Both the position numbers and the translations under genes were made by a program. A stretch of DNA of 64,000 bases, from assembly GCA_964016885.1 (NCBI GenBank), contig OZ024745.1, forward strand, positions 85,498,001 to 85,562,000, read 5' to 3'. Shown here in pieces: positions 4,590 through 61,800 of the stretch (within the stretch, counting starts at the first letter, position 1; each line of letters starts with the position of its first letter). The stretch comes from Eledone cirrhosa (taxonomy: Eukaryota). The notes beneath the pieces were generated by a model. That model saw nothing but the letters and a program-made list of their open reading frames with translations. It did no database searches and had not been told where the DNA came from.

Positions 4590-5330
4590 TTAATAAATGG
4601 AAACTATATTTATAAAACCATATTTATTTCATTATACATATTTCAGGGATACTAAATTAAAATATGGTATGCCTTCATCTGACAAAATACAATATATAAA
4701 CAGTTTTATAAATAATTTTGACGTACCCTATTAAATGCAACCAGTATTTTTGGAAGCTGTCTGGATAGTGAAATGTTTATTATTTTATTAGTTATAGTGT
4801 TAAGCACAATTAGAAAAAGACGGAGAGAAAGAAAGAAAAGACGGAGAGAGAGAAGGAGAAAGAAAGAAGGAGAGAGAGAAAAAGAAAACCTGGAGAAATA
4901 TCGGAGAGAGAGAGAGAAATGTATGTAGAAAAGAGAGAGATAAATAGATAGGAAGAAATAAAAAGAAAGAAAAAAGGAAGAAATAAGGAAGAAATAAGAA
5001 AAACAAAGGAAAGCAACAGAGAGATAATAAGTCATCATACAGATAGAAAAACTCAAGAGAGAGAAAATACTATATAGAGAGAGGGGGAGATAGTGACAAC
5101 TTTACGTCATGTCATATTAAGTTGAGTTAACAATTTATATGAAATGAATAATAAAAATATAAATATCAATATTCATGAATGGGACATAGGTATATAATAT
5201 GAGAAAATAACATTGTTCAATAATGACCATATGTTTAGTTTAAAAACTTGAGATCAATATACCAAAATCTGAGTTAAATCCTTCAAAAAAAGTACCCTAT
5301 TTATAAAAATCAGGATACAAATATGTATAT
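4590..5330 (-). mobile_element. Diverged PLE family C 3' end (pLTR plus part of the 3' UTR)
   Basis: 4590-4770 is homologous to the reverse complement of 13915-14100 and includes an HHR with core CAGATGA (4618-4697). The right boundary is uncertain. Confidence 0.7.
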
Positions 5331-6374: not shown

Positions 6375-7680
6375 TATTGGAAGATGATTCTATTAGTAGA
6401 AATGGGGGAGGGAGTTGTGTGTGTGTGTATATGGGTGTTATGTGTGTGTGTGTGCGAGTATGTTAAGATGGAGAGAATATATATTTTGTGTGTGTATGTG
6501 TGTAAGAAAGTGGTTCTATTAGTAGAAATGGGGGAGGGAGTTGTGAGTGTGGGGGTTGTTATGTGTGTGTATGGGTGTTATGTGTGTGGGAGTATGGTTA
6601 GCATGTTAAGATGAAGAGAATATATATATATATATATTGTGTGTGTGTGTGTGTAGGAAAATGATTCCTTTAGTAGGAATATTTTTGAATGAACATATTT
6701 TCCTTACTTATTCGTATTTGTTCTGTTGTATTGTCAGTGCAAACGTATGTTAAGGTTTATTTAGTTCGGGTTTTTATTTTCTAAAGTAGAAGGTGTTATG
6801 TGTGTATGTCATATTATGGTGTTGACATAATGTATATTAAACCATATTTAATGCTGGTCTATATTTTTGAATAAACATATTTTCCTTATTTATTCGTATT
6901 TGTTCTGTTGTATTGTTAGCGCAAAGGTAAAATGGGAAGACTTGGAATGTGGGTGTCTTATTACTTGCGCAAATGTCTAGATGTGCACTTAGTGGTATCT
7001 GTCTCGTGGTTGGATCTCGTAATTGTTGGCGATGAACTGTCATTCTGTTTCTGAGCGTGAGTTTAGTTTGTCCTATATAATCTTCATTGCATCCTTTACA
7101 TTTAATGGCATAAATTAGATTTTTTGATGAGTAAGTGAAGTGATTTTTTACAGTAAAATGTTGTCCTTATTTAAATGTATACGTGATGCCTTCAATGAGG
7201 TGAGTGCAGGTTCCACAATTAGAGCGACCACATTTTTTGATACTTGGTTATGGGTTTGTGGTAGATAATTTGGCATTGGTGAGTAATGTTTTCAGTGATT
7301 TTGGTTGTCTTTTGTTTTTGATTATTTTGTGTGTTTCAAGGGCTTTTTTCATTCTTGGGTTTTGTTTTAGTAGTGGGATGTTCTGGTGAATAGTGTTGTA
7401 AGCTTCCGCATTTATTGGGTTTAGTGTTGAGATATATGATAGAATATTGGACGTACCTTGAATTTGTTTCTGTTTCCGTAATTCATCAATGCCTATTGCT
7501 TTAGCACTTTCTATTCCATTATTTATTAGTAATAGTGGGTACTCTCTCTCTCGAGTAGAATTTCCTTTAATTCTTGAAGTCTTTTATTTCGCGTTTCATA
7601 ATTGGAGACAATTGTGCAAATTCTTCTTGCTAGGTTAAAAGGAATGTTCGTCTTCGTGTGCTTTGGATGGTTGGAGGTAT
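5640..7680 (-). mobile_element. Neptune-like PLE, 5'-truncated
   Basis: Minus strand 7680-6837 encodes thumb SNHPKHTKTNIPFNLARRICTIVS, linker KKCGRSNCGTCTHL and GIY-YIG NLIYAIKCKGCNEDYIGQT...RMTVHRQQ...HLDIC. The 3' region has tandem duplications and (TG)n; the left boundary is uncertain. Confidence 0.75.
6837..7680 (-). pseudogene. PLE RT thumb plus GIY-YIG endonuclease fragment (disrupted)
   Basis: Motifs as above, interrupted by stops and frameshifts. Confidence 0.8.
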
Positions 7681-8721: not shown

Positions 8722-9702
8722 ATTTATTAAAATAACAGATTAAAGTTTAAGCAAAGAATCGCTGCTTTCACCCTTAACGGGATCTTCTGGTATTTAGGGT
8801 TTGGCTATGTGTATACGGGAGTTTTGCGTCCGCGTGAGTGTGCAGGTTCGTACGTTGGTGGGTGTGTGTATATGTGTACTTCTTGTTTTAGTTGACTTAC
8901 GTCTCCGAACCTCCGTGTATTTATATGTAGGTATGCGTGTGCGCTTGTTATATACGTATTTATTTACTTATATACGTTTATATAATTATTTATTTATTTG
9001 TACACAAGCATACACACACACACATATTTATATGTGCGTGGTTTTGTATACCCATGGTAAGGTTTTGCGTATGCTTGTGTATGTACGTATCTGTTTGCGT
9101 GTATGTATTTATTTGTTTCTATTACTTCTGTATTGTATTTATTTACTTTGTTCTTAACTCTGTAGCGGATATTCATTTGGTCTCCTAGTTAGAATTTTAG
9201 TCTACGATTTCTGCTATACCATTTACGTGGTTTTGTCTTTGCGTGCTATTGTTCTCCACGCTCCACATATGACTTATTATCTTCGTTTTTTCGTTCATTG
9301 CCAGAGAACGTCTCTATGCACCACCTAAGAGAACATTAGTCTACGACCTCTTTTATACCATAAACGTGGTTCTGTCTTTGCGCGTAATTGTTTTTCACCG
9401 CTCCTATTAATGACGTATTATTCGTTTTTTCCCGTTTCTAGCCAGCGAACGTTTCCACGAACCAAAGTATCGTCTTCCTGTCTTCCTCCGGTTGCAACGT
9501 TTTTTGAAATATCCAGTTCTGCGTTTACAGATTGACTTTGTTAGTTTCAGAAGATCCCGTTAAGGGTGAAAGCAGCGATTCTTTGCTTAAACTTTAATCT
9601 GTTATTTTAATAAATATTTGCTCTACGGTTCTTATATATTTGATATATATTTTCCTCATCGAGCCCTCTTTGGATTTTAGTCTTCAATTTTATTATTATT
9701 AC
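8722..9702 (+). mobile_element. PLE family B, non-coding 3' copy with short inverted 5' arm
   Basis: 8789-9702 is the reverse complement of 48755-49668. 8722-8789 is an inverted copy of the pLTR end. Confidence 0.9.
9527..9602 (+). ncRNA. Hammerhead-like motif, family B (core CAGAAGA)
   Basis: ACAGATTGA..AGTTT CAGAAGA TCCC GTTAA GGGT GAAA GCA GCGATTCTT TGC TT AAACT TTAATCTGT. Confidence 0.65.
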
Positions 9703-9750
9703 TATAATATATATATATATATAATATAATATATATATATATAATATAAT

Positions 9751-14105: not shown

Positions 14106-14236
<131 letters not shown>

Positions 14237-14453
14237 AATATATATATATATATTATATATATTATATGGAGTTGCGACCGATAGATAGTATTAGCAGTTG
14301 GAAAGACCAACGGAAACTTTGTTCCCTCGATCCGATTTGACGAAAGTCGATCGTTCCTTAAATATATAATTATATATATATTATATATATATATATAATA
14401 TATATTATATATATATAAATATAATATATAAAATATATATATATATATAAATA

Positions 14454-14503
<50 letters not shown>

Positions 14504-14551
14504 TATATAAAATATATAACATGTAATATATATAATATATATATATAATAT

Positions 14552-14627
<76 letters not shown>

Positions 14628-14682
14628 TTAAAAAATAATGAATAAAACAATGAAACAGTTCCTTATATTAAACAAAAAAAGT

Positions 14683-14835
14683 TCATTATTTAACGATCGT
14701 TTCTAGGATATATATGTGTTAGAATTGGCATGCATATTCAACAGATCTATGTACAAAATTATACAAAATTATACAAACTATCAAGATTAAATATACATAC
14801 CAAACACACATATATGCCGTCTTCAGAAATAATGA
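14683..14835 (-). ncRNA. Hammerhead ribozyme, family F (long stem II)
   Basis: Mirror copy of 21088-21240. Confidence 0.75.
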
Positions 14836-15448
14836 AATATATTTATTGATAATAACAACAATTCAAAATTTCAGGTCCGTTTGGGAACGGAGTTCAAATT
14901 GACCAATGAAAATACAAAAAATTTTATGCAGTTTGGTGTGTGTATATACATGTAATTAACTTCGTACACATATTTATACAAAGCCATATGCTCACATGCA
15001 TACGCATGCCAAAAAGATGTATGCAAATACAAAAATTCAAGGCTAATGTCTCTGTAAGTTAATATTCCACAGATAAAATGCGTATAGACACATAAATATG
15101 AAATAAATGTATACACATATTCACATACTCACACATATCCGTACACTCACACACACACGCGCGTATATGTATAAACATACACATAATTACGAACATACAT
15201 ACACACACACACCCGCACACACATATATATGTGTGGATATAGCATTATCATAAGCACATGGATATTAATGCACGCACATAAACACTGCCACACACATTTA
15301 GATCAAGATACAGAAATTAGGTGGGAGGGGGGGAGAGGTCAGTATTCAACGGTTTCGGCAGACTGCTTATTTATAGATGTATCTATAAACTTAGAAATAA
15401 AAATAAAAGAAAAGAAAAAGAAAAAAGAAAAAAGAAATATATCAAGAA

Positions 15449-17174
<1,726 letters not shown>

Positions 17175-18749
17175 ATCATACATCCTTATTTGCATGCGCA
17201 TATATGTATTTTTATACTCAGATATAAACACCCAAACATATATACACCTACCTACATATATTTTCATACATACACGCTTACAAATACAGATAATAATAGT
17301 ATGGGGGAGAAGGGGGGGGGGGGAGAAGGGGATTATAGTAAATATATGTTTCAAGAAACATAGAATATTAATCTGTATTTGGATCCCAATATATGTTTTT
17401 ACATAGTTTCAGTGTTAGGAAATGCAAGAAATAAGGCAAAATTATGCATTTCAATATAAGTATACCATTAATTATAGGTTAACTAAACTAAAGATAGTTA
17501 ACATATTGATTTCTAAGGTGTAAACTAGTTAGGTTTATAATATTTGAAGCAGAATTTTGAAGTTAAATAGTAGTAGAGTATTAATTATAGTAACTAGGTA
17601 TACATCCATCAAGAATATATTAACTAGGTATACATCCAAAACACTAAAATATTGTGTAATCATTAATTGTGAAAAACCTTTAAATATTACTAATATATAC
17701 TTAGTAATTTAATTTATAGATTAATTTTAATTTATTTAACCCTTTATTAAAATTCCTTTACAGATAAAATATAACAAAATATCGTTTATTCAATGACAGA
17801 GAAATAATTTTTAGTATTATAGACCTAATTAATATACATTTTAGAGATATATTTATAATTTGGTTTTAAATTTAGTCAACCTAAAAATTTAATTTAATTG
17901 GCTTAAAATTAGTATCCTAATACAGACGGATTGCAGAGTGTCATGTAATCATAGAATAGGATGTGTTTTGGATGTATACCTAGTTAATATATTCTTTGCA
18001 ATTTTTGAAAAAATATGTATATGTATGTATGTATGTGTATGTGTATGTATGTATATATATGTGTATATATATATATATATATGTATGTATATGTATATGT
18101 ATTAATTTTGATTTCTGTTTACATATAATTATATTCTGCTATTGATAAAATACAATATCTGTTTTATTTATTATATACCTAATTAACATATACTATAGAA
18201 ATTAATATATAATTTTTAATTTAGTTAACCTATAATTTATATTCTACTACCGATGTAATACTTTATTTGTTTTTTCCCTATTACTAAATTCATTTCCTAA
18301 TATTGATACCATAACGTTAATAATTTTAATTTAGTTATACTATAATTAATACTCTACTACTATTTAACTTCAAAATTCTGCTTCAAATATTATAAACCTA
18401 ACTAGTTTACACCTTAGAAATCAATATGTTAACTATCTTTAGTTTAGTTAACCTATAATTAATGGTATACTTATATTGAAATGCATAATTTTGCCTTATT
18501 TCTTGCATTTCCTAACACTGAAACTATGTAAAAACATATATTGGGATCCAAATACAGATTAATATTCTATGTTTCTTGAAACATATATTTACTATAATCC
18601 CCTTCTCCCCCCCTCTCCCCCATACTATTATTATCTGTATTTGTAAGCGTGTATGTATGAAAATATATGTAGGTAGGTGTATATATGTTTGGGTGTTTAT
18701 ATCTGAGTATAAAAATACATATATGCGCATGCAAATAAGGATGTATGAT

Positions 18750-18872
<123 letters not shown>

Positions 18873-19688
18873 ATATATGTATGTATGTGTGGGCGTGTAT
18901 GTGTGTGTATATATATGTGTGTATGTATGTGTGTGTATATATGTGTATGTATATGTATGTCTCTCTATATATAAGTGTATCTTCGTATCTATGTGGGTAT
19001 ATGTGTGTATGTACATATATGCACATATATATGTTTATGTGTATATGTGTGTATGTGTATGTGTGTACGTGTGCGCACATATATATGTGAGTGTGTGTGT
19101 GTGTGTGTATATATATATGTATGTCTATGTATATATATATTTGTATGTGTATATATATATATCATTTATTATTATAATATAACTTATGTGTATATATATA
19201 TATGTGAGAGTGTGTATATGTATATATATATATGTAGATATATATGTGTATGTGTGTTTTTGTGTGTGTGTATATATATGTTTATATGTGTGTATGTATG
19301 TGTTTGTATGTGTGTTTATGGTTGTATGTGTGTGTGGGTATATATATATATATGTATGTATATATATATATATATATGTGTATATGTATCTCTATTTATG
19401 TGTGTATATATGTATATGTATAAACCTTTTCCTTGTATGTCTGAGTTGTGTGAGAGTGTAGTGGTGTTTGTATGTATATACGCATATATGAATGCGTATG
19501 TATTTGTATATATGCGTATATGTAAGTGCGTATGTGTGTGTGAATATATATCTATGTCTATGTATGAGTATGTATGTGTGTGTATGTATGTGTGTGTGTA
19601 TGTATGTATGTGTGTATGTGTGTATATATATGTGTGTATATGTATGTATGTATGTGTATGTATGTATGTATATGTGTATGTATATGTG

Positions 19689-19720
<32 letters not shown>

Positions 19721-20399
19721 TATTTATTATATATGTATGTGTGTGTATGTGTGTATATATATCTTTATATATGTGTATGTGTATGTATGTGTAGGTGTGT
19801 GTGTGACTATATATGTATGTGTGTATATGTGTATGTATGTATATGTATGTGTGTGTACATGTATGTATATATATATGTATGTATATGTATATAGATATGT
19901 ATATATATGTATGTATATATATATATATGTGTATATGTATCTCTATTTATATGTGTATATGTGTATATGTATATACCTTTTTCTTTGTAAGTCTGAGTTG
20001 TGTGAGAGTGTAGTGGTGTTTGTATGTATATACGGATATATGGATGCGTATGTATTTGTATATATGCGTATATGTAAGTGCGTATGTGTGTGTGAATATA
20101 TATCTATGTCTATGTATGAGTATGTATGTGTGTGTATGTATGTGTGTGTATATGTATGTATGTATGTATGTCTGTATGTATATGTGTGTATATATATGTA
20201 TGTATGTGTATGTCTGTATGTATATAAGTATGTATGTGTATGTATATGTGCGTGTATATATATATATATGTGTGTGAATATATGTGTGTGTGTATATGTG
20301 TGTATGTATGTGTGTATATATATATATGTGTGTGTGTATGTATGTGTATATATATATGTATATGTTTATATATGTGTGTGTGTGTGTGTTGTATGTGTA

Positions 20400-20477
<78 letters not shown>

Positions 20478-21087
20478 CTTGATATATTTCTTTTTTCTTT
20501 TTTCTTTTTCTTTTCTTTTATTTTTATTTCTAAGTTTATAGATACATCTATAAATAAGCAGTCTGCCGAAACCGTTGAATACTGACCCCCCCCCCCTCCC
20601 ACCTAATTTCTGTATCTTGATCTAAATGTGTGTGGCAGTGTTTATGTGCGTGCATTAATATCCATGTGCTTATGATAATGCTATATCCACACATATATAT
20701 GTGTGTGGGGGTGTGTGTGTGTATGTATGTTCGTAATTATGTGTATGTTTATACATATACGCGCGTGTGTGTGTGAGTGTACGGATATGTGTGAGTATGT
20801 GAATATGTGTATACATTTATTTCATATTTATGTGTCTATACGCATTTTATCTGTGGATTATAAACTTACAGAGACATTAGCCTTGAATTTTTGTATTTGC
20901 ATACATCTTTTTGGCATGCGTATGCATGTGAGCATATGGCTTTGTATAAATATGTGTACGAAGTTAATTACATGTATATACACACACCAAACTGCATAAA
21001 ATTTTTTGTATTTTCATTGGTCAATTTGAACTCCGTTCCCAAACGGACCTGAAATTTTGAATTGTTGTTATTATCAATAAATATATT

Positions 21088-21240
21088 TCATTATTTCTGA
21101 AGACGGCATATATGTGTGTTTGGTATGTATATTTAATCTTGATAGTTTGTATAATTTTGTATAATTTTGTACATAGATCTGTTGAATATGCATGCCAATT
21201 CTAACACATATATATCCTAGAAACGATCGTTAAATAATGA
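21088..21240 (+). ncRNA. Hammerhead ribozyme, family F (long stem II)
   Basis: Perfect stem I TCATTATTT/AAATAATGA, CTGAAGA at 21097, GAAA at 21220, palindromic CGATCG loop, GUU triplet. Stem II spans about 116 nt. Confidence 0.78.
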
Positions 21241-21433
21241 ACTTTTTTTGTTTAATATAAGGAACTGTTTCATTGTTTTATTCATTATTTTTTTAATATT
21301 TTATCTTGACTCTGTATTCCGTTTATCTTTCACCGAAAGTGATTTTTCATTGCATCTCTTCTTTCCATGATATCCGGACTACATTGAGTTCTCCATACGG
21401 ATTGGACACTACCGTAAACTCTTGGTAGATTTA

Positions 21434-21587
<154 letters not shown>

Positions 21588-21816
21588 TATATATAATATA
21601 TATATATAAATATAAAATATATATTATATATATATATAATATATGTATATTAATATATATATATATGTATATATTATATATATATTATATAGATATATTA
21701 TATATATTATATGTTATATATGTTATATATATATATATATATACTATATATATATATATATAAATTAATAAAAATAATGATTAAAAACAAAGAAATAGTT
21801 ACTTATATTAAAAAAT

Positions 21817-23923: not shown

Positions 23924-26900
23924 TTATCTCCAACCTGTATAGGTTGGCCACTGGTGTAGGAGGGAGTTTGTTGCTGCTGCCCTTAGGTTTCCCCCGTGTC
24001 TTGCTGTGGGCTCATCCGGGATCCTGGATAACAAGGTGTCGAGATGTTTCTTAAAGACATCCACCTCCACGTCATGCAAGCCTCGCAGATGCCTCGGCAG
24101 CCTGTTGAAGAGTTGAGGGCCCTTGAATCCCAGGCTATTGCAATACCTGCTCCTTATTCTAGATGTGGAAGACGGGACCTTTGGCACCACACAGTCACGT
24201 CATGTTCGACGGTTGGTCCAGCTCCCAATGCCAAAGTTTGGTGCTAGTCCCTCCAGGATTTTCCACATGTAGATCACTGCGTATCTCTCCCGTCTTCGCT
24301 CCAAGGAGTAGAGGTTCAGTTCCTTTAGCCTCTCCCAGTAGCTTTTCTCCCTCATCTTGGCAATCCTCTTGGTGTAGCTTCGCTGGATTGCCTCAAGCTC
24401 CGTGGTTAGTTTGACACTATGGGGTGACGAAAGCTGGGGGCAGTAGTCCAGGCGGCTTAGGACAAAAGTCCTCCACAGTGTCAACATGGTGTCTCGATCT
24501 CTTGTAAGGAAAGTCCTCAAGATCCAGCCAGCGAATCGTCTACATGTTCTCGCCACCTTCATGATGTGTGAAGAAAAAGATGCATCATCGCTCATGTCTA
24601 TGCCCAGGTCTCGTATCGATTTTGACACGGGGATATCGGTCCCTCCTGGTCCTGTGTAGCTGTGTTCCGCTATATTTGCGTTTGTGTTTGCAGGTTTGTA
24701 TTGTAGGGCTTAGAATTTGCCAGCATTAAACTGCATGTTGTTTTCTTCCGCCCATCTGTATATGGCATCCAGATCCTGCTGTAAGAGGGCAGCGTCAGCC
24801 GGGTTTTTGATTGCCTGTGCTACCTTAGTGTCATCAGCATAGCTAGTGAGGGATGTTGTTGCATGCACCACAGAGGGCATGTCCGAGAGAGCCACCAAAA
24901 ACAGTAGTGGTCCCAGGACTGTCCCCTGGGGCACCCCACTTGTTATCGGTGTTTCCCTCGAGAGGGCCCCATTTGCTGCGACTGCCTGGCTTCTGTCCCT
25001 TAGGAAGCCATGCAGCCACTCACCTACTTTTCCAGTTATGCCGAGTCCATGTAATTTGTGACATATCATTCCGTGGTCGACCTTGTCAAAGGCCTTCGCA
25101 AAGTCAAGATATATCACGTCTACATGTGAGCTGTCTAGTAGTTGTCTCAGTACCCAGTCGTAGTGATGTAGCAGCTGTTTAAGGCAGCTTATTCCTGGGC
25201 GGAAGCCATGTTGCGTGCTAGTCAGGCGGTCATTTTCTTCGAGGAAAGTGATTAGTTTCTTTCTGACGACTCGCTCCATGACCTTACTGATATGCGACGT
25301 CAGGGAGACTGGCCTATAGTTATTGGCCTCCGCTCTACTACCTCCTTTATGGATAGGGCATATTGTGCCTTCTTTCAGCTCCCTGGGTAGTACACCGCTA
25401 GCCAAGGAGCTTCTGAAAAGCATCTTCAGTGGAGTTGCTAAGGCCCGCTTACATATTTTTAGGAGAACTGCTGGGAATCCATCAGGTTCAGCAGCCGAGT
25501 CTGTTCTAATTTCATCAATGGCATACACCACATCCTCCTCCGTTATGTCTATGTGGTTGATGGTTGCCATTTCTTGATGTAGTGTTGTGGCATCAAAGAA
25601 CTACTCTGGCTTCGTTATTTGCATGTGCCTCAGTGGACATGTGAAGACACTTTTGTACTGTTCGTTCAGTATTTCACATATCTCTTGGGGATTTTCGGTT
25701 AATGAACCGTCCGTGTGGAAGAGTGGTCCAATCTTGCAGTGTACTGAGGCAGTTTCTTTTGCAAATTTAAAGAAGGCGTTAGGGTTTGTTTTAATGTTTT
25801 CTATGGCCCTGTTCTCTTTCTTTGCCCTCTCATTCTCATGTGAAAGTTTGAGTGCAATCTCGGTGTTAAGTAGTGCACGTTTCAAATAGGATTCCTTCTT
25901 GTTTTGGTTTTGTTGACTATTCAACTGGTTTGAGAGTTTAGTTCTACGTCTCATAAGGATTTTCCTATCTCTGGGAATAAGATTTTTGTGTCTGTTTGCC
26001 TCTTTCTCCGGGACACACTTTTTGCATATGGTGTGTATCGTTGTCATGAAGTGTTGAAATTGTGTTAGTGTCTTGTGTGGCGATGATTTCACTCCATCTT
26101 TGCTTCCGGATTTCTCTCTTAATCTTTTTCCAGTTAGCCTTGTAGAAGTTAAGGTTGGATAGCGTCCCGGAGCTTCTTGGTGGTTTTGTCTCTGTTGGTT
26201 CTCTTGGACCACATATCATTAGCTCTACTAAGTTATGATCCGAGAGAATTGTTGGTGTCACCTTTACATTGTGGATGAGCACTTCGTTGTTTGTAAAACA
26301 GAGGTCCAGGACATTTTCGCCTCTTGTTGGGAGGAGTATTGCTTGCTCCATGAACAGCCTGTGTGTGAGGGCCAGCAGGGATTCCGTCTGTCTCTGTTCT
26401 ATTGACGTCATTCCAGGGAGGAGGTGGCCCTCAGGCCATTTGACCTTTGGTAGGTTGAAGTCTCCCAGCAGTAGGATGTTGAGACCCTGGTCCAGTTTGT
26501 CAAGGACCTCTTCTATCCTACTTAGGCTATCCTCAAATTTACCCTCATGACTGGGGGCATCGGGCGGCCGATATGTGACACATATTACCGTCTGTAGTTG
26601 CTTCATATGTATTATCAGTGTGTCACAGACTGAGTTTGAATGTGTCAACAGTACAATTGGTGTGACATCTTCACGGATATACAGAGCAACCCCACCATGA
26701 GTTCTCTCCTTCCTGTCCGAACGAAATACAGTATATTTCGGTATATGTATTTCTGCATCTGCTATACTACTTGTCAGGTGCGTTTCGGTTAGTGCCATGC
26801 ATAGTGCTTGATTGCTTATGGCTAAGTCTCCCAGGTAGGAAATTTTACTCATGTTGCTGAGTTTCACCAGGCCCCTGACATTCAGCAGCAGCACTGGTGT

Positions 26901-26963
26901 GACTTTTGGGGTGCCAGTTATGGCTGTCGGTATGACACCTGGTCTGGTGTCAGCGGCGGCCAC
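23924..26963 (-). pseudogene. LINE ORF2, APE endonuclease plus reverse transcriptase
   Basis: LNVRGL, LTETHL, GGVALY, YRPP, GDFNLP, SDH; YLDFAKAFDKVDH, GVPQGTVLGPLLF, YADD, LERRRER. Stops at 25601 and 24710; frameshifts near 26070 and 24200. Confidence 0.93.
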
Positions 26964-27059
26964 TCTGGGTCCCTTAACTGCGGTGGTCGCGAGTGCTGGT
27001 GTGGATGACCCTGGCTCTGGAGACGATGCAGCCAGGTCAGCTGTCCCACAATCTTCTCT

Positions 27060-27827
27060 GCCATCACTTAAACATTTTTCTGATCTGCTGCTGCCATCTG
27101 TATCTCGTCGGCATGTGCGTGCCTTCTCCTTGTTGGTGCAGCACGCGCGACATCAGCATACTTCTGGAGCGGCTTATTTCGGCTTTGGCTGGGGCATGTG
27201 GCGCGAGTATGGTGGGCATAGTTCGTTTTAGACCTAGGGTGGGCGACTCTGCATCCCATCCCTGTCTCTCCATGCCAGCATGTCCCGTTCTTGAAAAACT
27301 TGCAGATTACTTGGGGTTATTTGCTCCCAGTGTCTCGGTGCTTTCTGTTCTTTCTTTGAACAGTTGTCCACTGGTCCCTCTGCGCTTGGTTCTCCTTTGG
27401 AAGTTGATTTCGCTTTTCACCTTTGCCCTTAGCTTGTTGGTTGCCCGGCCTGCCCTCCCTGCCTGTGGCGTAGGGTATATCATTTTCTTTCAGGTCCGTG
27501 TTTGTGCTCTCCTCCTTTTTTCTTTCCCCTTCCTCTTCCCTCTCCCTCTCCTTCTCCTCATCCCTCCCTTCGGTTTTCTCCTCCCTGAGGACACGGCTTA
27601 GCATCGCCATATGTGGCGCTATGAGGACACGCCTTCTCAATTTCTTTTCTCTTTCTCTCTATCTGTGCCAGGGTCCTCAGAAACCCATGGCTCTTCAGGG
27701 TCTCCGCCATCTTTTTGCTTGGCGGAGACCCATCAGCCATGGTCCACCCCTTGATCAAAACCGCTAGTTCCATCTTTGACCAGTTTCGCTGACTCCTGAT
27801 TTCACCTTTCTCCTGCATGCAGTCCAT
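27060..27827 (-). pseudogene. LINE ORF1 (disrupted) with CCCH-type zinc finger
   Basis: Charged E/K/R-rich stretch, then ICKFFKNGTCWHGETGMGCRVAHP at about 27310-27237. Confidence 0.65.
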
Positions 27828-28967
27828 TTCACTGTGGAGGGGAGAAAGAGAGACAGTGGGAAGTGTAGGGTAGAGGGTAGAGAGGGACAGAGGGAGGGAG
27901 GGAGATAGAGATATAACTCCAGCGAGAAAAAGAAAGAGAAACAGAAGAAAAGAAAAGAAAAGGGGGAGACAGAAGAGGGGAGCGAGAGAGATAGCGGGAA
28001 GAGTGGGGGGGAGGTCAGAGGGAGAGAGAGAGAGAGAGAGAGCTCGTTGATCTAGAGAGAGGGAGAGAGAGAGCTCGTTGATCTAGAGAGAGAGAGAGGA
28101 AGAGAGAGAGAGATAGGAAGGAAGGAGAGAGATAGAGACAGCGTGAGCAACAGCAGTTCATAAATATAAAAATAAATTTTTAAATTTAAATTAATGAATG
28201 GAAGAAACCGGAAACATAGAGATATAGAAACACGATGTAAGTTGTATATAAGCTGAATGTAAATGTTTGTTTACAAATATACGAAGTTATTGTAATATCA
28301 GCATATCATACAAGAAACAACGAAATCGGGTCAAATACAGATAAGATTATACCAAATCAAACAAGATTATATCAAATTAAATTATGTTACTCAGAAAAAT
28401 CAAAATAATACAAGATCTGTTTAAGTTAAACCAAAATGCTCTGTATGGTAGTCAAGAAAAATAGAAAGCACGTGTGTGTTGTCTCCTATGAAGGAATCAT
28501 ACAGTGAAAATAAACATGTTCAAAACGGTATTATATGTAAAGTATACTTCAAAATAATTGCGTCAAAGCACAAAAACTTATCTTTTTTGTATGTTTTCCC
28601 TGTCCTCTGAAGAATTAAAACCATACATAAATCCGATTACTGTCGATTTAAAATATTAAAATTTCAAATCTGGAGAGATGACAATTCACGTCTTATACCA
28701 ACAAGTGCCAAGCCTATATATATTATATATATATATTATATATATATATATATTTTATTTTTATAGATATATATATATTATATATATATATATAGATATA
28801 TATATATATTATATATATATATGTTATATATAAATATATATATATATTATATATACATATATTATATATATATATATTATATATATATATTATATTATAT
28901 ATATATATATATATATTATATTATATATATATTATATATATATATATTATATATATAGGATCGAGTA

Positions 28968-29071
28968 AGACCCCGACGGCTGAGCTCAAGCCGTTTCGAC
29001 GGTTAATTCTGGACTAAATGAACATTTTTATCCTGGTATTTGAATAGCCGAGCTTCTCAGGGGGTAATTCC
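28968..29071 (-). ncRNA. Hammerhead-like motif, family A (3' pLTR)
   Basis: Same fold as 3423-3527, core CUGAGAA. Confidence 0.6.
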
Positions 29072-30183
29072 ATATATGGTAAAAGTGATTGTCACAAGGA
29101 TTGGTCAAATGTTTGTTGTTGAGACATAATAATTCTATCATGGCAATTTGTGAAGGGACGGGGTAGCTGAACCTGCCAGTAGAAGAAAGAGGGAGAGAGG
29201 GTGGATGAAACCCAGTCGTGCGTAGATAGTGCCAACCACAGCTGGGCAGGTGGTCAAAGAAGATACTAGGGGGAGAGGGGGAGGAAGTCGAAACAATAAG
29301 GAAAACAATATGGGGTAAATATATAGAAAAAAACCGGGAGGGTTAAAAAGCAATTAAATGTAAAAACACAATTTCTGGTTACTATAACCTAAGGGCAGCT
29401 ATCAAGTCTCTCATTGGTACTGCTAGACTAAAGAAAGGTTAACTAGGTGGGACGGAATTATAATGAGACCCTTTTAAGAGGTATAAGCAAACAACCGAAT
29501 ATACCTTACGGTGACGGGTCAACAAATGGGGTGCCAAAATACTAAAGAAACTACCACGAAATAATTCAGAGTCCCGAGACCAGTACGAAATAAAGGTTTC
29601 TACCCCAGGCACAAGGCCAGCAACCACCCAGTGCTGGAAAAAAAAAAAATACGAAATAATAATTCAGAATCCCGTAAAAGAATACTAATACTATCTCTAA
29701 GGGTGCCGCCACGAAACAAAAATTCTAGTTCAAACTACATAAATGCCCGTACGAATTAAATGTAAAATTTGATACGGAAAATTAATTCAGAATCCCCCCC
29801 CCCCCCTAAAAAAAATAGATAAAATAAATAAATACTGATATACGAGAAATTAAAGCAAACATACCAGTAAGAAATGTAGAAAGCACGGAAAAGGGGCAGC
29901 CATCGGATATGAAGGCAAGTATCCGGGGTCTAACACATCTGCTATAAAAAGTGGAGTCGGCCAAATCGATCATAGAATAGGGGAAGGGGTGGGGGTACTG
30001 AGGCTACAAAGGACCTTGGGGCTGCCTCGGTGGGGCGAGAAAAAGGACGACGACAAAGAGAGAGGACTAGGGAGGGATGAGGGAAATATAGAGGAAGCGA
30101 TAAAAGGATATAAAAGAAGATCTACCTTTGGAAGCAGGGGTTACCCATTACAAGATCGGCAAGTGCGGTGTTATAGCCCTAGT

Positions 30184-32337
30184 CTAACCCCCCGGGTCAT
30201 TATGGGGTTCGAGGGCGAGGTAAGTCCTACGTAATCTGTGTTTACATGCAGTTACCAGTTCATCTTTCTTGTTTAGGAGTTGGTCCGTCGAAAACAACAT
30301 TTGTAAAGTTTCCTCCGAGCATAAATTGCACGGACGGCGTCCTCCCGAGTAAGAGTTGGCTCTGGACAGTAAGCTCCAAGTGAGATCATAGGTAGTATTG
30401 TTATCCTTGAGGTCCCATATGTGGCCCGAAAGTGTCGTGGCGTGACGCCGGGCCGGGTTTCGGAAGGTATGTCTGTGTTGGTATAGCCGGGTCTTGCAGT
30501 CACATGCGGTTAATCCTATATAAGCTTTGTTGGAGGTATCCGTCCTCGCGTTGCACTGGTAGATCACATTACGATCTCTGCATCTGTTGTCGAGGGGGCA
30601 AATGGATCCATCAGGACAGTTGCACCTCCTGGTCGGCTCTCCACTGCTATTTAGGTTATTTCTTCCATAGGGGTTGAGTTTTTTGTTGTTAGAGGAGACG
30701 ATGTTTTGTGCAAAGTTTGGTGTGGTGATGTAAGAGAGTTTGATGGTATTTTTGTTAATTATGTTGTGGTAGAGGTGTTGTAGTGGGAAGTGTTTTTCAA
30801 TGAGCCTAAAGAAGATTTTCCCGATAGGAGTTGTCACCTCGGCGTTGTGGGGAGGATTAAACCATGTTACGTTGCGTGAGCGGCGGTGTCGCCTGCTGGT
30901 TCCGCTAATGGAAGCTGGACACTAGGATATTTCCTCCCGGAAACCTCTCCGCTTGAGGGCCTGGTTGTAATAAGGCGCATGTTCCTCGAATATCTGCTCA
31001 TTAGCTGACAAACGAGATATGCGGAGGGAGATGTTTTTAACCAGGTTATTGGTGATGTTCCTAGGATGGTTTGACCGGCGGTGGATGTAGTGCAGGTTGT
31101 CGTTAGGTTTCCTGTATGGGTAGGACAGATCGTTATAGAGGTCAAGAGTAACGTCCAGGAAGTTCATTCGGGTCAGGTACGTTTGTAGGGCTATTTTAAA
31201 TCCCCAGTCGCGGAAGAAGCTGATTAATTGTTTACGGACCCGACCTGTACTACTGGGGTTGTACCCTTTAAGGGTAAGGAGCCTATCATCACGGTACAAT
31301 CCACCGCCGAATGCAGGAAACATATCGGTGAGTTTGGCTATTAGGAATAATCCTATAAGATCTGTGACCTCAGCCGAATCCGTGGCGCCAATGCTGACGT
31401 CGAAGTGTGAGTCGGGAGCTCTCTTTATCCATTTGGAGTTGTCGAAGAGTAAGACTGTCTTCCTGGCGTGGAGGATGATGTTTCTTTCCTGGTCGGTGAT
31501 GGGCACAAGTGTTTTGGCGAAGTCCAAGGTAGCCGTAAGTAGCGGTAAGGTAATTGAAGCATAGTAACTCTCTATGTCAAACTGGATGAATTTAGTGTCT
31601 CGTTTTTCCTCCATATTGCTGAACCATGAGATTACTTCCTGGGTGTTGACCCATAGGCTAGGTCTGGCGTGTTGCTTAACTTTAGGTATAACGCGGTCTA
31701 GGATTTTTTTGCTGATTCTCCCTATGTCGGACTTCGTTGGGTTTATAAGCCTGATAGAAGGTTTACGGTCGAAATCGGATTTGTGGTCCTTTAGTGTGAA
31801 GTAGGGTGTCCGTGGGTCTAGGGGTTCCGTGCGGTCGGCGACCCCGAGGATGGAGGTAATTTGTTGTCCATCTCGATTTATGTGCTCGATGCATGAGTGG
31901 TTAGCCTTTTTATAGGGGGAGTTTAGGCTGCTCCTGATCAGTGTGTGGTATCTGTCGGGGTTGACAAAGTAGAGGTTACCAGTTTTATCCGAGTGCACCA
32001 TGATGTCATTGGTGTTATCATACTCTGTTAAGTTGCTACGGAGCTTTTGTAGGAATCGGTTGTGTCTGGGTTTGAATTTAATGTTCTTGACCAGTTGGAA
32101 AAGGTCATTCTCGAAGGGTGAGAGCATAGGGTTCGGAGGGGGAGATTTGTAGGTAATAAATCCGAATCTCTCCTTGGTACCGAAGTCCTGATTTTCGCAA
32201 AATCTGTCGTAGAAAAAAGTTCTCCATCTAAGTCTTTTCGCAAATAGATCGATTTTTTGCGTGAGCATCCGAAGGTAAAGTTTTTTCGGTGGGACTGGGA
32301 TGTTCTTGGTAGAGAAGTCGATGTTGTGTTTTCGCAT
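30184..32337 (-). pseudogene. PLE RT plus GIY-YIG endonuclease, 717 codons with one internal TAG
   Basis: ORFs 30922-32337 and 30184-30837 share one frame. Motifs STKNIP, HSDKT, KDHK, QFDIESYY, GLYRDD, WFNPP, CNCPDGSICPLDNRC, VIY..YIG, CNLC, CKH. Confidence 0.95.
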
Positions 32338-32520
32338 GGTGCGGGTGAAAGAACTTGAGCTTAGCGGAAAAGTCTGGATACGGCGTGGTAGGGTCGGAAA
32401 GTGCTATACTACGGGAATAGGAGCTAGATAGCGAAGGAAATGCGGTAAGGAACCAGATGGACCATAACGCACCAAAGTACTCAATACTTAGGGTAGGACT
32501 GTGGGTAATAGGAACGAGTA

Positions 32521-32624
32521 GGACCACGACGGCTGAGCTCAAGCCGTTTCGACGGCTAATTCTGGACTAAATGAAAATTGTTATCCTGGTATTTGGATAA
32601 CCGAGGTTCTCAGGGGGTAATTCC
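32521..32624 (-). ncRNA. Hammerhead-like motif, family A (5' pLTR)
   Basis: Same fold, core CUGAGAA. Confidence 0.58.
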
Positions 32625-33086
32625 ATATATGGTAAAAGTGATTGTCACAATGATTGGTCAAAAGTTTGTTGTTGAGACATAATAATTCTATCATGGCAAT
32701 TTGTGGAGGGAAGGGGTAGCTGAACCTGCCAGTAGAAGAAAGAGGGAGAGGGGTGGATGAAACCCAGTCGTGCGTAGATAGTGCCAACCACAGCTGGGCG
32801 GGAGGTCAAAGAAGATACTAGTGGGCAGGGGGAGGAAGTCGAAACAATAAGTAAAACAATATGGGGTAAATATATAGAAAAAACCGGGAGGGTTAAAAAA
32901 CAATTAAATGTAAAAAACAATTTCTGGTTACTATAACCTAAGGACAGCTATCAAGTCTCTCACTGGTACTGCTAGACTAAAGAAAGGTTAACTAGGTGGG
33001 ACGGAATTCTGGACTAAATGACTCATTTAGTCCAGAATTAGCCGTCGAAACGACTTGAGCTCAGCCGTCGGGCTCCTACTCGTTCT

Positions 33087-33160
<74 letters not shown>

Positions 33161-33385
33161 ATATATATATATATATTATATATATATATATATATATTAT
33201 ATATATTATATATATATATCATATATATATATATTATATATATATTAAATATATATTATATTTATATACATATATTATATATATATATATATTATATATA
33301 TATACTATATATATTATATGTTATATATATTATATATATATTTATATATATATATATATATTATATATATATATTATATATATAT

Positions 33386-35996: not shown

Positions 35997-36072
35997 ACAG
36001 ATTAAAGTTTAAGCAAAGAATCGCTGCTTTCACCCTTAACGGGATCTTCTGAAACTAACAAAGTCAATCTGT
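35997..36072 (-). ncRNA. Hammerhead-like motif, family B
   Basis: Reverse complement of 9527-9602. Confidence 0.62.
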
Positions 36073-36991: not shown

Positions 36992-39110
36992 CTATCTGTT
37001 AGGGTATAACGTGGGGCTGTAATACAGGAAAGTTTTGTGCAATTTATGTTTACAAGCCGAAATTGCCTCAGATTTTTTATTTAAGATGTGGTCTGTGGCG
37101 TAGAGTATTTCCAGGGCCTCAGCGGCGCAGAGGTCACATGGTCTTTTATTTCCGTTATACGATGTAGCCTTAGCTAGGATCTCCCAGTGTAACTTATATT
37201 GGGTGTGGTTGTCTTTTAGACTCCAGATATAAGCTGAAAGTGACGTCATATTCCTTCTTAGAGGGTAACGAAAAGAATGGGTATTCATGTAAAGACGCTG
37301 CTTGAAAGTATTGGCGGATAACCCTATGTAGGCCCTACAGGACGTGGGTGTTACAACCTTACATTTGTAGACAATGTTACTAGAGAGGCATTTCCCGGAT
37401 AGGGGGCAATCAGCCCGATTCCTACAATTACAGTTAGTACTAACTACAGGGTTGCACGTGTTCCTACGGCTAGGTAGTTTAGCTAAATTTGAAGATGTGA
37501 TGTTATGTGCAAGGTCAGGTGTCGTAGAGTAAGAAATGTTAATAGTATTTCAATTAAAAATGTTACTATATTTATGTGTAGGGGGAAAATGCTTCATAAT
37601 AAGGGAAAGAAAGATCTTAGCTAATGGTGTGGCCACCTCCATATTAAATGGTGGGTTAAACCAACAAATGCGACCGGATCTATTTTTTCTAGGTCTATTT
37701 TCGTACTCTGTATATGCTACCTTATCGACATATCCACTTCGAGCAAGAGCTTCATTGTAATAAGTGGAATGGTTGTTGAAAATACGCTCGTTGTTGGAAA
37801 GACGGGAAAGCCTCAACGAAACGTTTCTTACCAGGTTGTTGGTTATGATGGTAGGATGGTTGGAATGCTTACTTATATAATTAAGCGTATCATTCGGCTT
37901 TCTATACGGGTAATACAACCCATTCAATAAATTGAGGCTAACGTCGAGGTAATTAACGACCGAGAGATTGGCCTCAACCTGTATAGAGAGGTTGAAGCCT
38001 TTAAAGAAGGCTGTGAGTTCTTTTCTGAACCTGTCGCAAGCACGAGGTCCGCACTTAGTCATGGTCAAAAGACCATCGTCACGGTACAAACCACCGCCCG
38101 CGTTGGGGAATTCGTCCTTGATAGAGAAAAGAAGGAAAAGGCCGATAAGATCAGTAACCTCCGTAGAATCACTGGCGCCCATACTCACGTCGAATGGGGT
38201 ACTATTGGATTTTTTAATCCAAATAGAGTCGTCGAAATTAATCACCTACTTTCAGGCATTGTTGATGACATCAACTTCGAAATCCTTAATCACTCTGAGT
38301 GTTTTAGCGAAATTGATAGCTCTAAGGAGAAGTGGTAAAATGATGGAGGAGTAGTAATTGTTGATGTCGAATTGGATAAAACGGCAATGTTCCTTGTTAC
38401 ATATGCCGTTGAACCAATCAATCACCGCGAAAGAATTGTTCCACAGTGCAAGAGGGGCCAAACTTCTAAATTTCAGGTATAATTCCATCAAGAATCGTTT
38501 TACTAAGTCTACCTAAATCGGACTTCGTAGGGTTAATAAGCCGAATAGAGGGGTTGTTCGGAAAATTGGATTTGTGATCCTTCAGGGTAAAATGGAGGGA
38601 AATAGGGTCCAGAAGTTCGGTCCGTTCCAGGATGTTGAGATCAGATGTGATTTTAAACCCAGCATCGTTGATTTCATTGATGACGCACCGATTAGTTTTA
38701 CGGAAATCCTTAGTTACAGCATTATGTAATAGTTGATGGTAAGTACTGCGCTCCACTTGATATAGGTTGCCAGTTTTGTCGGAATGGACGTGCACGGCGT
38801 TAGAATCCTTAATAGAACGAATTCTATTCTTCAGGTCTTGCTGGAAGGAATTGTTCCTATTCCGAAATGTGATACTCCGAATGAGTTCCAAGATATCATT
38901 TTCGAATGGTAGCAATGCTGGGTTATTATAGGTTTTAAATCCAAATTGATCCTGTTTGTTGTCTGCTTTTCGCGGATTATCGAAATAAAAGGCACGCCAA
39001 CGCAACCTTTTAATGAACGCGTCTGTTTTCTGTATTAGGAGTTTTAGGTATGTTTTCCTGCTTGGTACGGGTATGTTCTTTGTAGAGATATTCAGATGTT
39101 GTTTCTGCAT
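36992..39110 (-). pseudogene. PLE RT plus GIY-YIG endonuclease (disrupted)
   Basis: STKNIP, HSDKT, QFDINNYY, GLYRDDGL, CNCRNRADCPYPGKC, IVY..YIG, CDLC, CKH. Frameshift near 38470; stops near 38250 and 37550. Confidence 0.93.
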
Positions 39111-39254: not shown

Positions 39255-39330
39255 ACAGATTAAAGTTTAAGCAAAGAATCGCTGCTTTCACCCTTAACGG
39301 GATCTTCTGAAACTAACAAAGTCAATCTGT
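39255..39330 (-). ncRNA. Hammerhead-like motif, family B (5' pLTR)
   Basis: Reverse complement of 9527-9602. Confidence 0.62.
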
Positions 39331-48752: not shown

Positions 48753-51700
48753 TAGTAATAATAATAAAATTGAAGACTAAAATCCAAAGAGGGCTCGATG
48801 AGGAAAATATATATCAAATATATAAGAACCGTAGAGCAAATATTTATTAAAATAACAGATTAAAGTTTAAGCAAAGAATCGCTGCTTTCACCCTTAACGG
48901 GATCTTCTGAAACTAACAAAGTCAATCTGTAAACGCAGAACTGGATATTTAAAAAAACGTTGCAACCGGAGGAAGACAGGAAGACGATACTTTGGTTCGT
49001 GGTAACGTTCGCTGGCAAAGAACGGGAAAAAACGAATAATACGTCATTAATAGGAGCGGTGAAAAACAATTACGCACAAAGACCAAACCACGTTTATGGT
49101 ATAAAAGAGGTCGTAGACTAATGTTCTCTTAGGTGGTGCATAGAGACGTTCTCTGGCAATGAACGAAAAAACAAAGATAATAAGTAATTATGTGGAGCGT
49201 GGAGAACAATAGCACGCAAAGACAAAACCACGTAAATGGTATAGCAGAAATCGTAGACTAAATTCTAACTAGGAGACCAAATGAATCTCCGCTACAGAGT
49301 TAAGAACAAAGTAAATAAATACAATACAGAAGTAATAGAAACAAATAAATACATACACGCAAACAGATACGTACATACACAAGCATACGCAAAACCTTAC
49401 CATGGGTATACAAAACCACGCACATATAAATATCTGTGTGTGTGTATGCTTGTGTACAAATAATAAATAATTATATAAACGTATATAAGTACATAAATAC
49501 GTATATAACAAGCGCACACGCATACCTACATATAAATACACGAATGTTCGGAGACGTAAGTCAACTAAAACAAGTACACATATACACACACCCACCATAC
49601 GTACGAACCTGCACACTTACGCGGACGCAAAACTCCCGTATACGCATAGCCAAACCCTAAATACCAGAATATGTAAACATTATACGCTATAACAGTCAAA
49701 TATACGTACGAGAAGGTATACATACCTTCACAAAACATACGGGTAATATATACTTACCTATGCAAATAAGTAAAGGAATAAACAAAACATATACTTAGCT
49801 CCCACATCAAGACGTAAAATATCCACGTATAGATGGTGCTATCCGTTAGGGCATAACGTGAGGCTGTAATACAGGAAAGTTTTGAGCAATTTATGTTTAC
49901 AAGCCGAAATTGCCTCAGATTTTTTGTTTAAGATGTGGTCTGTAGCGTAGAGAATTTCCAGGGCCTCAGCGGCGCAGAGGTCACATGGTCTTTTATTTCC
50001 GTTATACGATCTAGCCCTAGCTAGGATCTCCCAGTGTAACTTATATTGGGTGTGGTTGTCTTTTAGACTCCAGATATAAGCTGAAAGTGACGTCATATTC
50101 CTTCTTAGAGGGTAACGAAAAGAATGGGTATGCATGTAAAGACGCTGCTTGAAACTATTGGCGGTTAACCCTATGTAGCCCCTACAGGACGTGGGTGTTA
50201 CAACCTTACATTTGTAGACAATGTTACTAGAGAGGCATTTCCCGGATAGGGGGCAATCAGCCCGATTCCTACAATTACAGTTAGTACTAACTACAGGGTT
50301 GCACGTGTTCCTACGGCTAGGTAGTTTAGCTAAATTTGAAGCTGTGATGTTATGTGCAAGGTTAGGAGTCGTAGAGTAAGAAATTTTAATAGTATTTCTA
50401 TTAAAAATTTTACTATATTTATGTGTAGGGGAAAATGCTTCGTAATAAGGGAAAGAAAGATCTTAGCTAATGGTGTGGCCACCTCCATATTATATGGTGG
50501 GTTAAACCAACAAATGCGACGGGATCTATTTCTTCTAGGTCTATATTCGTACTCTGTACGAGATCAGCACTTAGTCATGGTCAAAAGACCATCGTCACGG
50601 TACAAACCACCGCCCGCGTTGGGGAATTCGTCATTGATAGAGAAAAGAAGGAAAAGGCCAATAAGATCAGTAACCTCCACAGAGTCACTGGCGCCCATAC
50701 TCACGTCGAATGGGGTACTATTGGATTTTTTAATCCAAATAGAGTCGTCGAAATTAATCACCGACTTTCGGGCATTAAGGATGACATCAACTTCAAAATC
50801 CTTAACCACTGTGAGTGTTTTAGCGAAATTGATAGCTCTAAGGAGAAGTGGTAAGGTGATGGAGGAGTAGTAATTGTTGATGTCGAATTGGATAAAACGA
50901 CAATGTTCCTTGTACATATGCCGTTGAACCAATCAATCACCGCGAAAGAATTGTTCCACAGTGCGAGAGGGGCCAAACTTCTAATTTCAGGTATAATTCT
51001 ATCAAGAATCGTTTTACTAAGTCTACCTAAATCGGACTTCGTAGGGTTAATAAGCCGAATAGAGGGGCTGTTCGGAAAATTGGATTTGTGATCCTTCAGG
51101 GTAAAGTGGGGAGAGATAGGGTCCAGAGGTTCGGTCCGGTCCAGGATGTTGAGATCAGATGTGATTTTAAACCCAGCATCGTTGATTTCATTGATGACGC
51201 ACCGATTAGTTTTACGGAAATCCTTAGTTACAGCATTATGTAATAGTTGATGGTAAGTACTGCGCTCCACTTGATATAGGTTGCCAGTTTTGTCGGAATG
51301 GACGTGTACGGCGTTAGAATCCTTAATAGAACGAATTCTATTCTTCAGGTCTTGCTGGAAGGAATTGCTCCTATTCCGAAATTTGATATTCCGAATGAGT
51401 TCCAAGACATCATTTCCGAAGGGTAGCAATGCTGGGTTCCACGGAGGGTTATTATAAGTTTTAAATCTAAATTTATCCTGTTTGTTGTCTGCTTTTCGCG
51501 GATTATCGAAATAAAAGGCACGCCAACGCAACCTTTTAATGAACGCGTCTGTTTTCTGTATCAGGAGTTTTAGGTATGTTTTCCTGCTTGGTACGGGTAT
51601 GTTCTTTGTAGAAATATTCAGATGTTGTTTCTGCATGATGAATATAAGTCAGTAGAGTGCTCAACCGAAGGAGCCAAATAGTAATAATAATAAAATTGAA

Positions 51701-51990
51701 GACTAAAATCCAAAGAGGGCTCGATAAGGAAAATATATATCAAATATATAAGAACCGTAGAGCAAATATTTATTAAAATAACAGATTAAAGTTTAAGCAA
51801 AGAATCGCTGCTTTCACCCTTAACGGGATCTTCTGAAACTAACAAAGTCAATCTGTAAACGCAGAACTGGATATTTAAAAAAACGTTGCAACCGGAGATA
51901 GACAGGAAGACGATACTTTGGTTCGTGGAAACGTTCGCTGGCTAAGAACGGGAAAAAACGAATATCATACGTCATTAATTTTAATAAATA
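48753..51990 (-). mobile_element. PLE family B, copy 2 with internal deletion
   Basis: Colinear with 35986-39336, lacking about 330 bp after GLYRDDGLLTMTKC. HHR-like motifs at 48855-48930 and 51781-51856. Confidence 0.93.
49839..51636 (-). pseudogene. PLE RT plus GIY-YIG endonuclease (frameshift and deletion)
   Basis: ORF pieces 50758-51636, 50564-50932 and 49839-50135 match family B copy 1. Confidence 0.92.
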
Positions 51991-57829: not shown

Positions 57830-58351
57830 ATGTTTGCGTGTATGTATTTATCTATTTCTATTACTTCTGTATTGTATTTATTTACTTTGTTCTTAACTCT
57901 GTAGCAGAGATTCATTTGGTCTCCTAGTTAGAATTTTAGTCTACGACTTCTGCTATACCATTTACGTGGTTTTGTCTTTGCGTGCTATTGTTCTCCACGC
58001 TCCACATATGACGCATTATCTTCGTTTTTTCGTTCATTGCCAGAGAACGTCTCTATGCTCCACCTAAGAGAACATTAGTCTACGACCTCTTTTATATCAT
58101 AAACGTGGTTCTGTCTGCGCGTAATCGCTTTTCACCGCTCCTATTAATGACGTATTATTCGTTTTTTCCCGTTCTTTGCCAGCGAACGTTTCCACGAACC
58201 AAAGTATCGTCTTTCTGTCTTCCTCCGGTTGCAACGTTTTTTGAAATATCCAGTTCTGCGTTTACAGATTGACTTTGTTAGTTTCAGAAGATCCCGTTAA
58301 GGGTGAAAGCAGCGATTCTTTGCTTAAACTTTAATCTGTTATTTAATAAAT
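57830..58351 (+). mobile_element. PLE family B 3' fragment
   Basis: Homologous to 9093-9616; HHR-like motif at 58264-58339. Confidence 0.9.
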
Positions 58352-61380: not shown

Positions 61381-61576
61381 TAGTTATACTATTTATGGTT
61401 ATGTAAACACAAAACCTTAAGCAGTTGTAAGTATTTTACACACACCCTAAATAGTGGTAGGCAGTAATGTATTACTACCTTATTACCAGTAAGTTAAGTA
61501 GCTCAATGTAAAAACATCAGATGATTTACAGAGCAGTTATATGAAATATAAGAATCAAAGAACTGTTCAAAACATT

Positions 61577-61630
61577 ATTGTGCTTACAGCTGTTTCCTCC
61601 AAACCGAGGTTTGGATTCTTCGGAGCAATT
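61577..61630 (-). ncRNA. Minimal hammerhead, family D (core CCGAAGA)
   Basis: Mirror of 63941-63993. Confidence 0.68.
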
Positions 61631-61800
61631 TATTAATGCATGGACAGTTATATGACCTCCTTTTCAGCCGAGAGACATACCAATACATATTCAAACATTG
61701 ATACATATTCAAACATTGTGGGTCAACATTCATTACAGAATTTAGAGTGGCAGTACACACTTCGAGATTACATTTATATTAATAGGTACAATCAAAAATC

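Follow-up and report, generated by a model that had tools for sequence, protein, structure and literature searches.

A hammerhead-like motif with A at core position 4 in the terminal repeats of a putative Hydra-type Penelope-like retroelement

Penelope-like elements of the Hydra clade are described as carrying RWK-like and DKT motifs, a CxCx5C linker and a nuclease with CxxC and CxH (PMC8557442, Craig et al. 2021). The hammerhead table of that paper (section 11/S2) has 26 rows, all with U at position 4 and G at 16.2; by our own count, 14 of the 26 have U-U at 10.1/11.1, 10 have U17 and 4 have A7. According to the text available from PMC4209133 (Cervera and de la Pena 2014), Penelope-type hammerheads have low activity and include variants missed by descriptors. 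In the accessible part of PMC11167929 (Frangieh et al. 2024), one such hammerhead cleaved only with the element's protein, cleavage-dead mutants showed unimpaired insertion in vitro, and reverse transcription began at two internal sites. This one reconstituted system, in which cleavage was dispensable for insertion, raises the question of why Penelope-like elements keep hammerheads.

How far can the hammerhead core change in nature? The main text of PMC3088659 lists natural U-U, U3-A8, A6C and other core variants, for which compensation by tertiary contacts is suggested, and describes a natural viroid hammerhead with U4C that was much slower in vitro and sufficient in vivo. Mutants of the CUGA turn in a tertiary-stabilised hammerhead had low activity except for the 3-8 swap (PMC9901934, in the part available), and a stem I-loop II contact via U1.7 is described for hammerheads in the accessible text of PMC11875169. 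We found no literature report of a natural A4; Figure 5, S6 and S7 of PMC3088659 and the supplement of PMC4209133, which lie outside the text available to us, could show one, and the accessible parts of PMC11014351, PMC6765202, PMC12192606, PMC6155905 and bioRxiv 10.64898/2026.07.22.740005 held nothing bearing on A4.

Here, we analyzed a window of 64,000 nucleotides of Eledone cirrhosa DNA, in which an earlier note had described a hammerhead-like motif, family B, as six identical copies with the full type I topology, A at position 4 and U-U at 10.1/11.1. Each of these points was borne out. The 76 nt recur with 0 mismatches at all six coordinates, on the + strand at 9527 and 58264 and on the − strand at 35997, 39255, 48855 and 51781, and all 20 of the 20 proposed pairs are standard, giving three stems with the open end in stem I. 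In the copy at 9527..9602 (+), whose sequence fits a type I motif with a distal and a proximal stem I, the distal part pairs 9527-9533 with 9596-9602 (7 bp) and the proximal part pairs 9543-9547 with 9589-9593 (5 bp), with an internal loop between them. Core positions 3-9 (9548-9554) read CAGAAGA, with A for U at position 4 (9549). They are followed by the mismatch of U10.1 (9555) with U11.1 (9567), which encloses a 3-bp stem II and a five-base loop beginning GUUA and ending in A (9555..9567), then by G12 A13 A14 and A15.1 (GAAA, 9568-9571), stem III (9571-9575 with 9583-9587; 4 bp plus one G-U) and the triplet CUU (9586-9588), with U17 at 9588, after which the cut is predicted. U1.6 and U1.7 (9594..9595) are unpaired, and U1.7 could form the stem I-loop II contact known from fast hammerheads. 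Stem III with its loop (9571-9587) is nearly palindromic: by inspection, 14 of its 17 positions could pair between two molecules, which would permit the dimer form described for Penelope-type hammerheads.

Compared with the core consensus C3 U4 G5 A6 N7 G8 A9, the motif fits at six of seven positions and departs at position 4. G12 A13 A14, the A15.1-U16.1 pair and H17 are all present (9568-9571, 9587 and the U at 9588), and U-U takes the place of a purine-pyrimidine pair at 10.1-11.1. Strict hammerhead membership thus fails at position 4, while position and shape match the Penelope-type hammerhead. As in the Hydra-clade rows available, the motif is of type I and lies near the 3′ end of a short element with a reverse transcriptase (RT) plus GIY-YIG, inserted in (TA)n, and one row, Hydra-1_aJap, has a core pattern identical to that of family B except at position 4 (PMC8557442). 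Family B departs from those rows in A4, in pairing G15.2 with C16.2, in its longer stem III, whose loop is 7 nt, and in a stem I that is both extended and bulged. The accessible descriptions of other Penelope-like elements share the hammerhead in both terminal repeats and core variants (U3-A8) that escape standard descriptors, but those hammerheads are mostly minimal, lack stem III and keep U4, whereas family B has a full stem III and A4. The viroid U4C (PMC3088659, main text) is likewise a natural change at position 4, but it replaces a pyrimidine with a pyrimidine, whereas in family B a purine is fixed in ~10,000 genomic copies. U-U at 10.1/11.1, U17 and a natural C4 are already known; only A4 is unusual. 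Hammerheads of this kind and the element clade that carries them have both been described before; the gain is therefore a natural variant that is new at one core position, and not a new system.

The six copies represent four insertions, namely two elements with both terminal repeats and two 5′-truncated pieces, since the copies at 35997 and 39255, and those at 48855 and 51781, are each the two terminal repeats of one element. In the element at 35956-39337, the downstream repeat carries the motif at 35997..36072 (−) and the upstream repeat at 39255..39330 (−), where the predicted cut lies 158 nt before the ATG at 39110. In the element at 48752-51979, the corresponding copies lie at 48855..48930 (−) and 51781..51856 (−), the latter with the same 158-nt spacing between predicted cut and ATG (51636). 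The copy at 58264..58339 (+) lies within a 5′-truncated insertion (57831-58353), and that at 9527..9602 within a 5′-truncated insertion comprising 3′ UTR, motif and tail (8782..9705, +) between (TA)n tracts. The family B 3′ UTR has an imperfect tandem duplication just upstream of the motif (9191-9464; ~140 nt, ~77% alike). A seventh copy, inverted and cut off so that it starts at core position 3, lies at the inversion junction (8722..8789, −).

The family B reading frame at 49839..51636 (−) encodes a putative RT with a C-terminal GIY-YIG and is broken, being frameshifted and carrying a deletion; a second frame (36992..39110, −) is broken as well. The motif lies ~930 nt past the end of the reading frame (932-947 nt in 5 linked cases) and again upstream of the frame. 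Motifs in the first frame include RWR, DKT, CxCx5C, CxxC and CxH; RWR and DKT are invariant in the family B protein alignment, and the CxCx5C linker is followed by CxxC and CxH in the C-terminal nuclease. Pfam gave no significant match to pieces of the family B protein, so that the domain call rests on these motifs and on likeness to related frames: 18 protein relatives, mostly unnamed, have 34-57% identity, and the protein resembles the printed Hydra proteins as judged by eye. As in the Hydra clade, the element has a single frame with RT followed by C-terminal GIY-YIG, is <3 kb long and has terminal repeats, and among 30 family B copies, the 3′ ends mostly run into TA-rich repeats. By its motifs and layout, the host is a Hydra-type Penelope-like retroelement; the Naiad clade was rejected because the nuclease is C-terminal.

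How fixed is A4 in family B? A 35-letter pattern with positions 4 and 7 left free had 10,203 matches genome-wide, of which 10,141 carry A4; by our own count, the other 62 comprise 27 T, 18 G and 17 C, a share at the level expected from decay after insertion. A4 was also present in all 30 copies of an older family B lineage defined by letters outside the motif, although 3 of the 30 had been chosen via an A4 pattern. Three of the 27 U4 matches were inspected and had no diagnostic letters in common; we therefore take them as scattered mutations. Neither the genome pattern matches nor the sampled blocks yielded a U4 lineage of family B, and the 94 nuclease matches in the sampled blocks included no close U4 sister family.

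A relaxed genome pattern gave 734 matches compared with 518 for its backwards control; among the first 100 of the 734 (20 of the 100 fetched) and in the sampled blocks, we found no second independent A4 family. Among the recurrent groups in these 100, one was a coding YADD stretch of a LINE-type RT, another a plain hairpin, and a third represented A4 decay of a hammerhead family that mostly keeps U4 (family F; 98 of the first 100 matches, 5,530 in all); a further group resembled a block cluster with U4 in all 19 of its hits in the sampled blocks, and the remainder were old family B copies. Near-identical motif pieces in low-depth contigs of runs X5 and X6, under other organism labels, were set aside, as carry-over is possible. 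Elsewhere, seven A4 copies of an otherwise-U4 hammerhead family are clustered on one strand (G000:C1:53356631-53369064), probably because a single mutated copy expanded in tandem at this site.

The earlier note had also placed U, A and C at position 4 within one clade, and different Hydra-type families do show U4 (family C), A4 (family B) and C4 (family D). It further cited a family C copy (4618..4697, −) in support of A4. The letters CAGATGA are indeed present, but 98 of the first 100 family C matches (4,997 in all) carry U4; hence, the A4 of this copy is a private mutation and not a second A4 lineage. In family D, whose copy at 61570..61640 (−) has its core starting at 61623, C4 is fixed (4,681 matches, with C in 99 of the first 100). 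Further family D copies lie at 63947 (+) and 3723 (−), and subfamilies vary in a palindromic stem III that remains self-complementary. In family A, the first 100 of the 1,893 matches divide into 63 with U3-A8 and 37 with a C3-A8 mismatch. The mismatched form resembles a subfamily that has spread, in which case it would breach the core more strongly than A4 does. A family A element lies at 28715-33513, and hammerhead ends of this family lie near 28982, 32535, 3496 and 1529.

These C4, A4, U3-A8 and C3-A8 families indicate that core changes are common among Hydra-type elements. In blocks picked as rich in family B, 15 clusters had at least two hits, only some of them tied to a Hydra reading frame: 12 have U4 (two of these with U3-A8), one A4, one C4 and one both C4 and U4. 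The mixed family (L043:7903, L044:1924, L055:3681, L058:2419; C4 in 3 and U4 in 4 of 7 hits) is a possible case of a switch inside one family. The U4 architecture closest to family B in this genome is that of family F (L352-L381; 5,530 matches), which has U4, U-U at 10.1/11.1, G15.2-C16.2 and U17 and would be a natural comparison construct.

That canonical descriptors would miss such variants, as the earlier note proposed, proved correct for those of the CUGANGA type, which would miss the A4 motif. An Rfam search of the window likewise gave no hammerhead match at the six family B copies (E ≤ 1), but it also missed the U4 copies of family C, so that A4 alone is not the reason. The sole Rfam hammerhead match elsewhere in the window was a weak HH9 match (44704-44774, −; E 0.23). 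That site is a canonical-looking U4 hammerhead, and a second U4 core lies at 52664 (−), both belonging to other families. Our relaxed descriptor found 125 matches in 1,064,000 bases of the family B-rich blocks compared with 0 in the reversed sequence, and the backwards control of the 35-letter pattern also gave 0 matches; these controls exclude a chance origin.

Is the motif conserved beyond its surroundings? The contention that the flanks vary while the motif stays the same is weak within the window, where four of the five other copies have just 1-3 changes in the 76 nt upstream of the motif (the fifth lacks such a flank); genome-wide data show it better. In 49 copies selected by their upstream flank and independently of the motif, 22 of 151 upstream positions carried a variant common to at least three copies, compared with 3 of the 76 positions in the motif (Fisher p 0.014, indicative only, because positions are linked). 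Two of these three motif variants lie in the internal loop, and the third changes a G-U to an A-U in a stem. Rare changes were similar in the two regions (1.9% upstream and 1.6% in the motif). A comparison of 8 old with 62 young copies gave 17 differences between the lineages over 9300-9526 (227 positions), whereas the motif had only two, which are confined to the internal loop of stem I; copies in the compared lineages are ~15% diverged upstream. Similarly, in contigs of one sample (runs X1 and X2), no core position had a variant at 3% or more, and the only two variants above 10% were both at internal-loop positions.

Because shared variants mostly avoid the stems and core, the motif looks selected, and these comparisons suggest moderate purifying selection, short of proof of catalysis. 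The 58 nt downstream of the motif were equally free of shared variants in 29 copies (a sample biased by its nearness to the anchor), and conservation may therefore reflect a non-catalytic role. Evidence that the fold itself is maintained was mixed, combining loop-located shared variants with no clear covariation and some stem-weakening changes in old copies. Of 40 double changes at 10.2/11.2, 23 formed a pair, compared with 17.9 expected (p 0.057), and no covarying stem II lineage was found; a single change at 11.2 occurred in 856 matches of mixed backgrounds. A G-A mismatch in distal stem I was common to 9 of 30 old copies, and six of these, which had been chosen via 11.2, also shared U at 11.2.

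The ends of the insertions bear on whether the copied RNA had been cut. Among 30 copies, 16 have 3′ ends at 9615-9617 and 14 at or beyond 9698 (an end class near 9705), with none at the cut; these two internal start sites bounding the tail are common to family B and the element described in the available part of PMC11167929. An anchor lying downstream of the motif had 17,555 matches; 90 of the first 100 were fetched, and none of these 90 copies has a 5′ end at 9586-9592. Consequently, the copied RNA ran through the predicted cut site. A 5′ boundary at 9603-9617, just 3′ of stem I, occurs in 20 of the 90 anchored copies, and many of these abut an inverted fragment of their own element; the RT may pause at the stem, or the AT-rich sequence there may be a favored junction.

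What, then, does a hammerhead with A4 do? On balance, we favor a Hydra-type terminal-repeat hammerhead that cuts slowly or with an element protein aiding its fold; most likely, the demand for catalysis is relaxed and the motif cuts weakly or with help from protein. The change from U to A would have arisen once, in the ancestor of family B, and would lower the rate through the lost U4 contact and a competing fold. The retained catalytic G8 and G12, 3-8 pair, A15.1-U16.1 pair and 5-bp stem III, with the possible U1.7-loop II contact, would allow residual cutting after 9588, probably aided by the element's protein. Reverse transcription would start within the RNA downstream of the cut site, on uncut or rejoined RNA, and the element may tolerate A4 because of this internal start. 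With such a template, as in the reconstituted element, fast cutting would be unneeded for insertion, and selection would maintain modest rather than fast cleavage. Slow cleavage after 9588 would shorten read-through transcripts to a point 158 nt ahead of the ATG or yield unit-length RNA.

A less likely reading is that the motif no longer cuts and that its hairpins persist because they serve the element in some other way, for example by binding its protein, by setting where reverse transcription starts or through overlap with an internal promoter. In the folding predictions, the hammerhead fold (−9.9 kcal/mol) lies 5 kcal/mol above the predicted minimum (−15.1 kcal/mol), and the folding energy (z −0.63) gave no support for the hammerhead fold. 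With A4, the computed value for a competing helix that pairs C3 with G12 rises from 0.02 to 0.40, which could mean no cutting at all. A motif that does not cut would also fit the lack of genomic ends at the predicted cut, the dispensability of cleavage for in vitro insertion of another Penelope-like element (PMC11167929, in the part available), the spread of a family A subfamily despite its C3-A8 mismatch, and the 58 downstream nucleotides just as free of shared variants. On the other hand, the remaining core letters stayed constant between lineages that differ at 17 of 227 upstream positions, a constancy that a purely structural role would not obviously need. Furthermore, 12 of the 15 multi-copy clusters in the sampled blocks keep U4, which indicates that the core is normally under selection in such elements.

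Could A4 instead be a fully functional alternative core, cutting about as well as the U4 form, with a tertiary contact and the stable stem III rescuing it? The motif has the unpaired U1.7 and the loop II beginning GUUA, which bear on the contact in the accessible text of PMC11875169; with its five-pair stem III, a monomer could fold; family B is the most frequent block cluster (24 of 125 hits, in blocks picked for this family); and compensation of variant cores by tertiary contacts is suggested in PMC3088659 (main text). However, single CUGA-turn mutants were all low even in a tertiary-stabilised hammerhead, the U4A value itself lying outside the part of PMC9901934 available. The lack of a second independent A4 family among the relaxed pattern matches listed and in the sampled blocks also argues against it. 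A CUU triplet is a handicap for hammerhead cleavage, and here it adds to the U-U closing a 3-bp stem II. Together, these points make a core as good as the U4 form unlikely. That the motif is a neutral relic hitchhiking on one successful master element, with copy identity reflecting the youth of the family, is very improbable: the 1-3 upstream differences among window copies, the equal decay of motif and flank after insertion and the shared stem-weakening changes of the oldest lineage would fit, but shared variants are scarce in the motif and loop-located, and the core, A4 included, is retained in lineages ~15% diverged upstream.

A related and improbable idea, prompted by the predicted folds, is that A4 would be a working core outside the consensus whose off-state helix, positions 2.3-4 with 11.1-15.1, would be opened by the element protein as a protein-gated switch. 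If so, A4, C4, U3-A8 and C3-A8 would form a natural mutational series on the purpose of Penelope-like hammerheads. More generally, ~10,000 A4 copies beside families with C4, U3-A8 and mismatched 3-8 pairs offer natural constructs to gauge how much cutting is needed. Should A4 prove active, hammerheads are undercounted by descriptors that fix CUGA; should it prove inactive, the elements retain a motif of hammerhead shape for some other purpose.

Other repeats in the window include two Penelope-like elements of other types (58558-59930, −, and 6837-7583, −), a degenerate LINE-type element that includes AP endonuclease and RT (24200-27152, −), and a 3.5-kb inverted duplication of low-complexity DNA (14145-21776).
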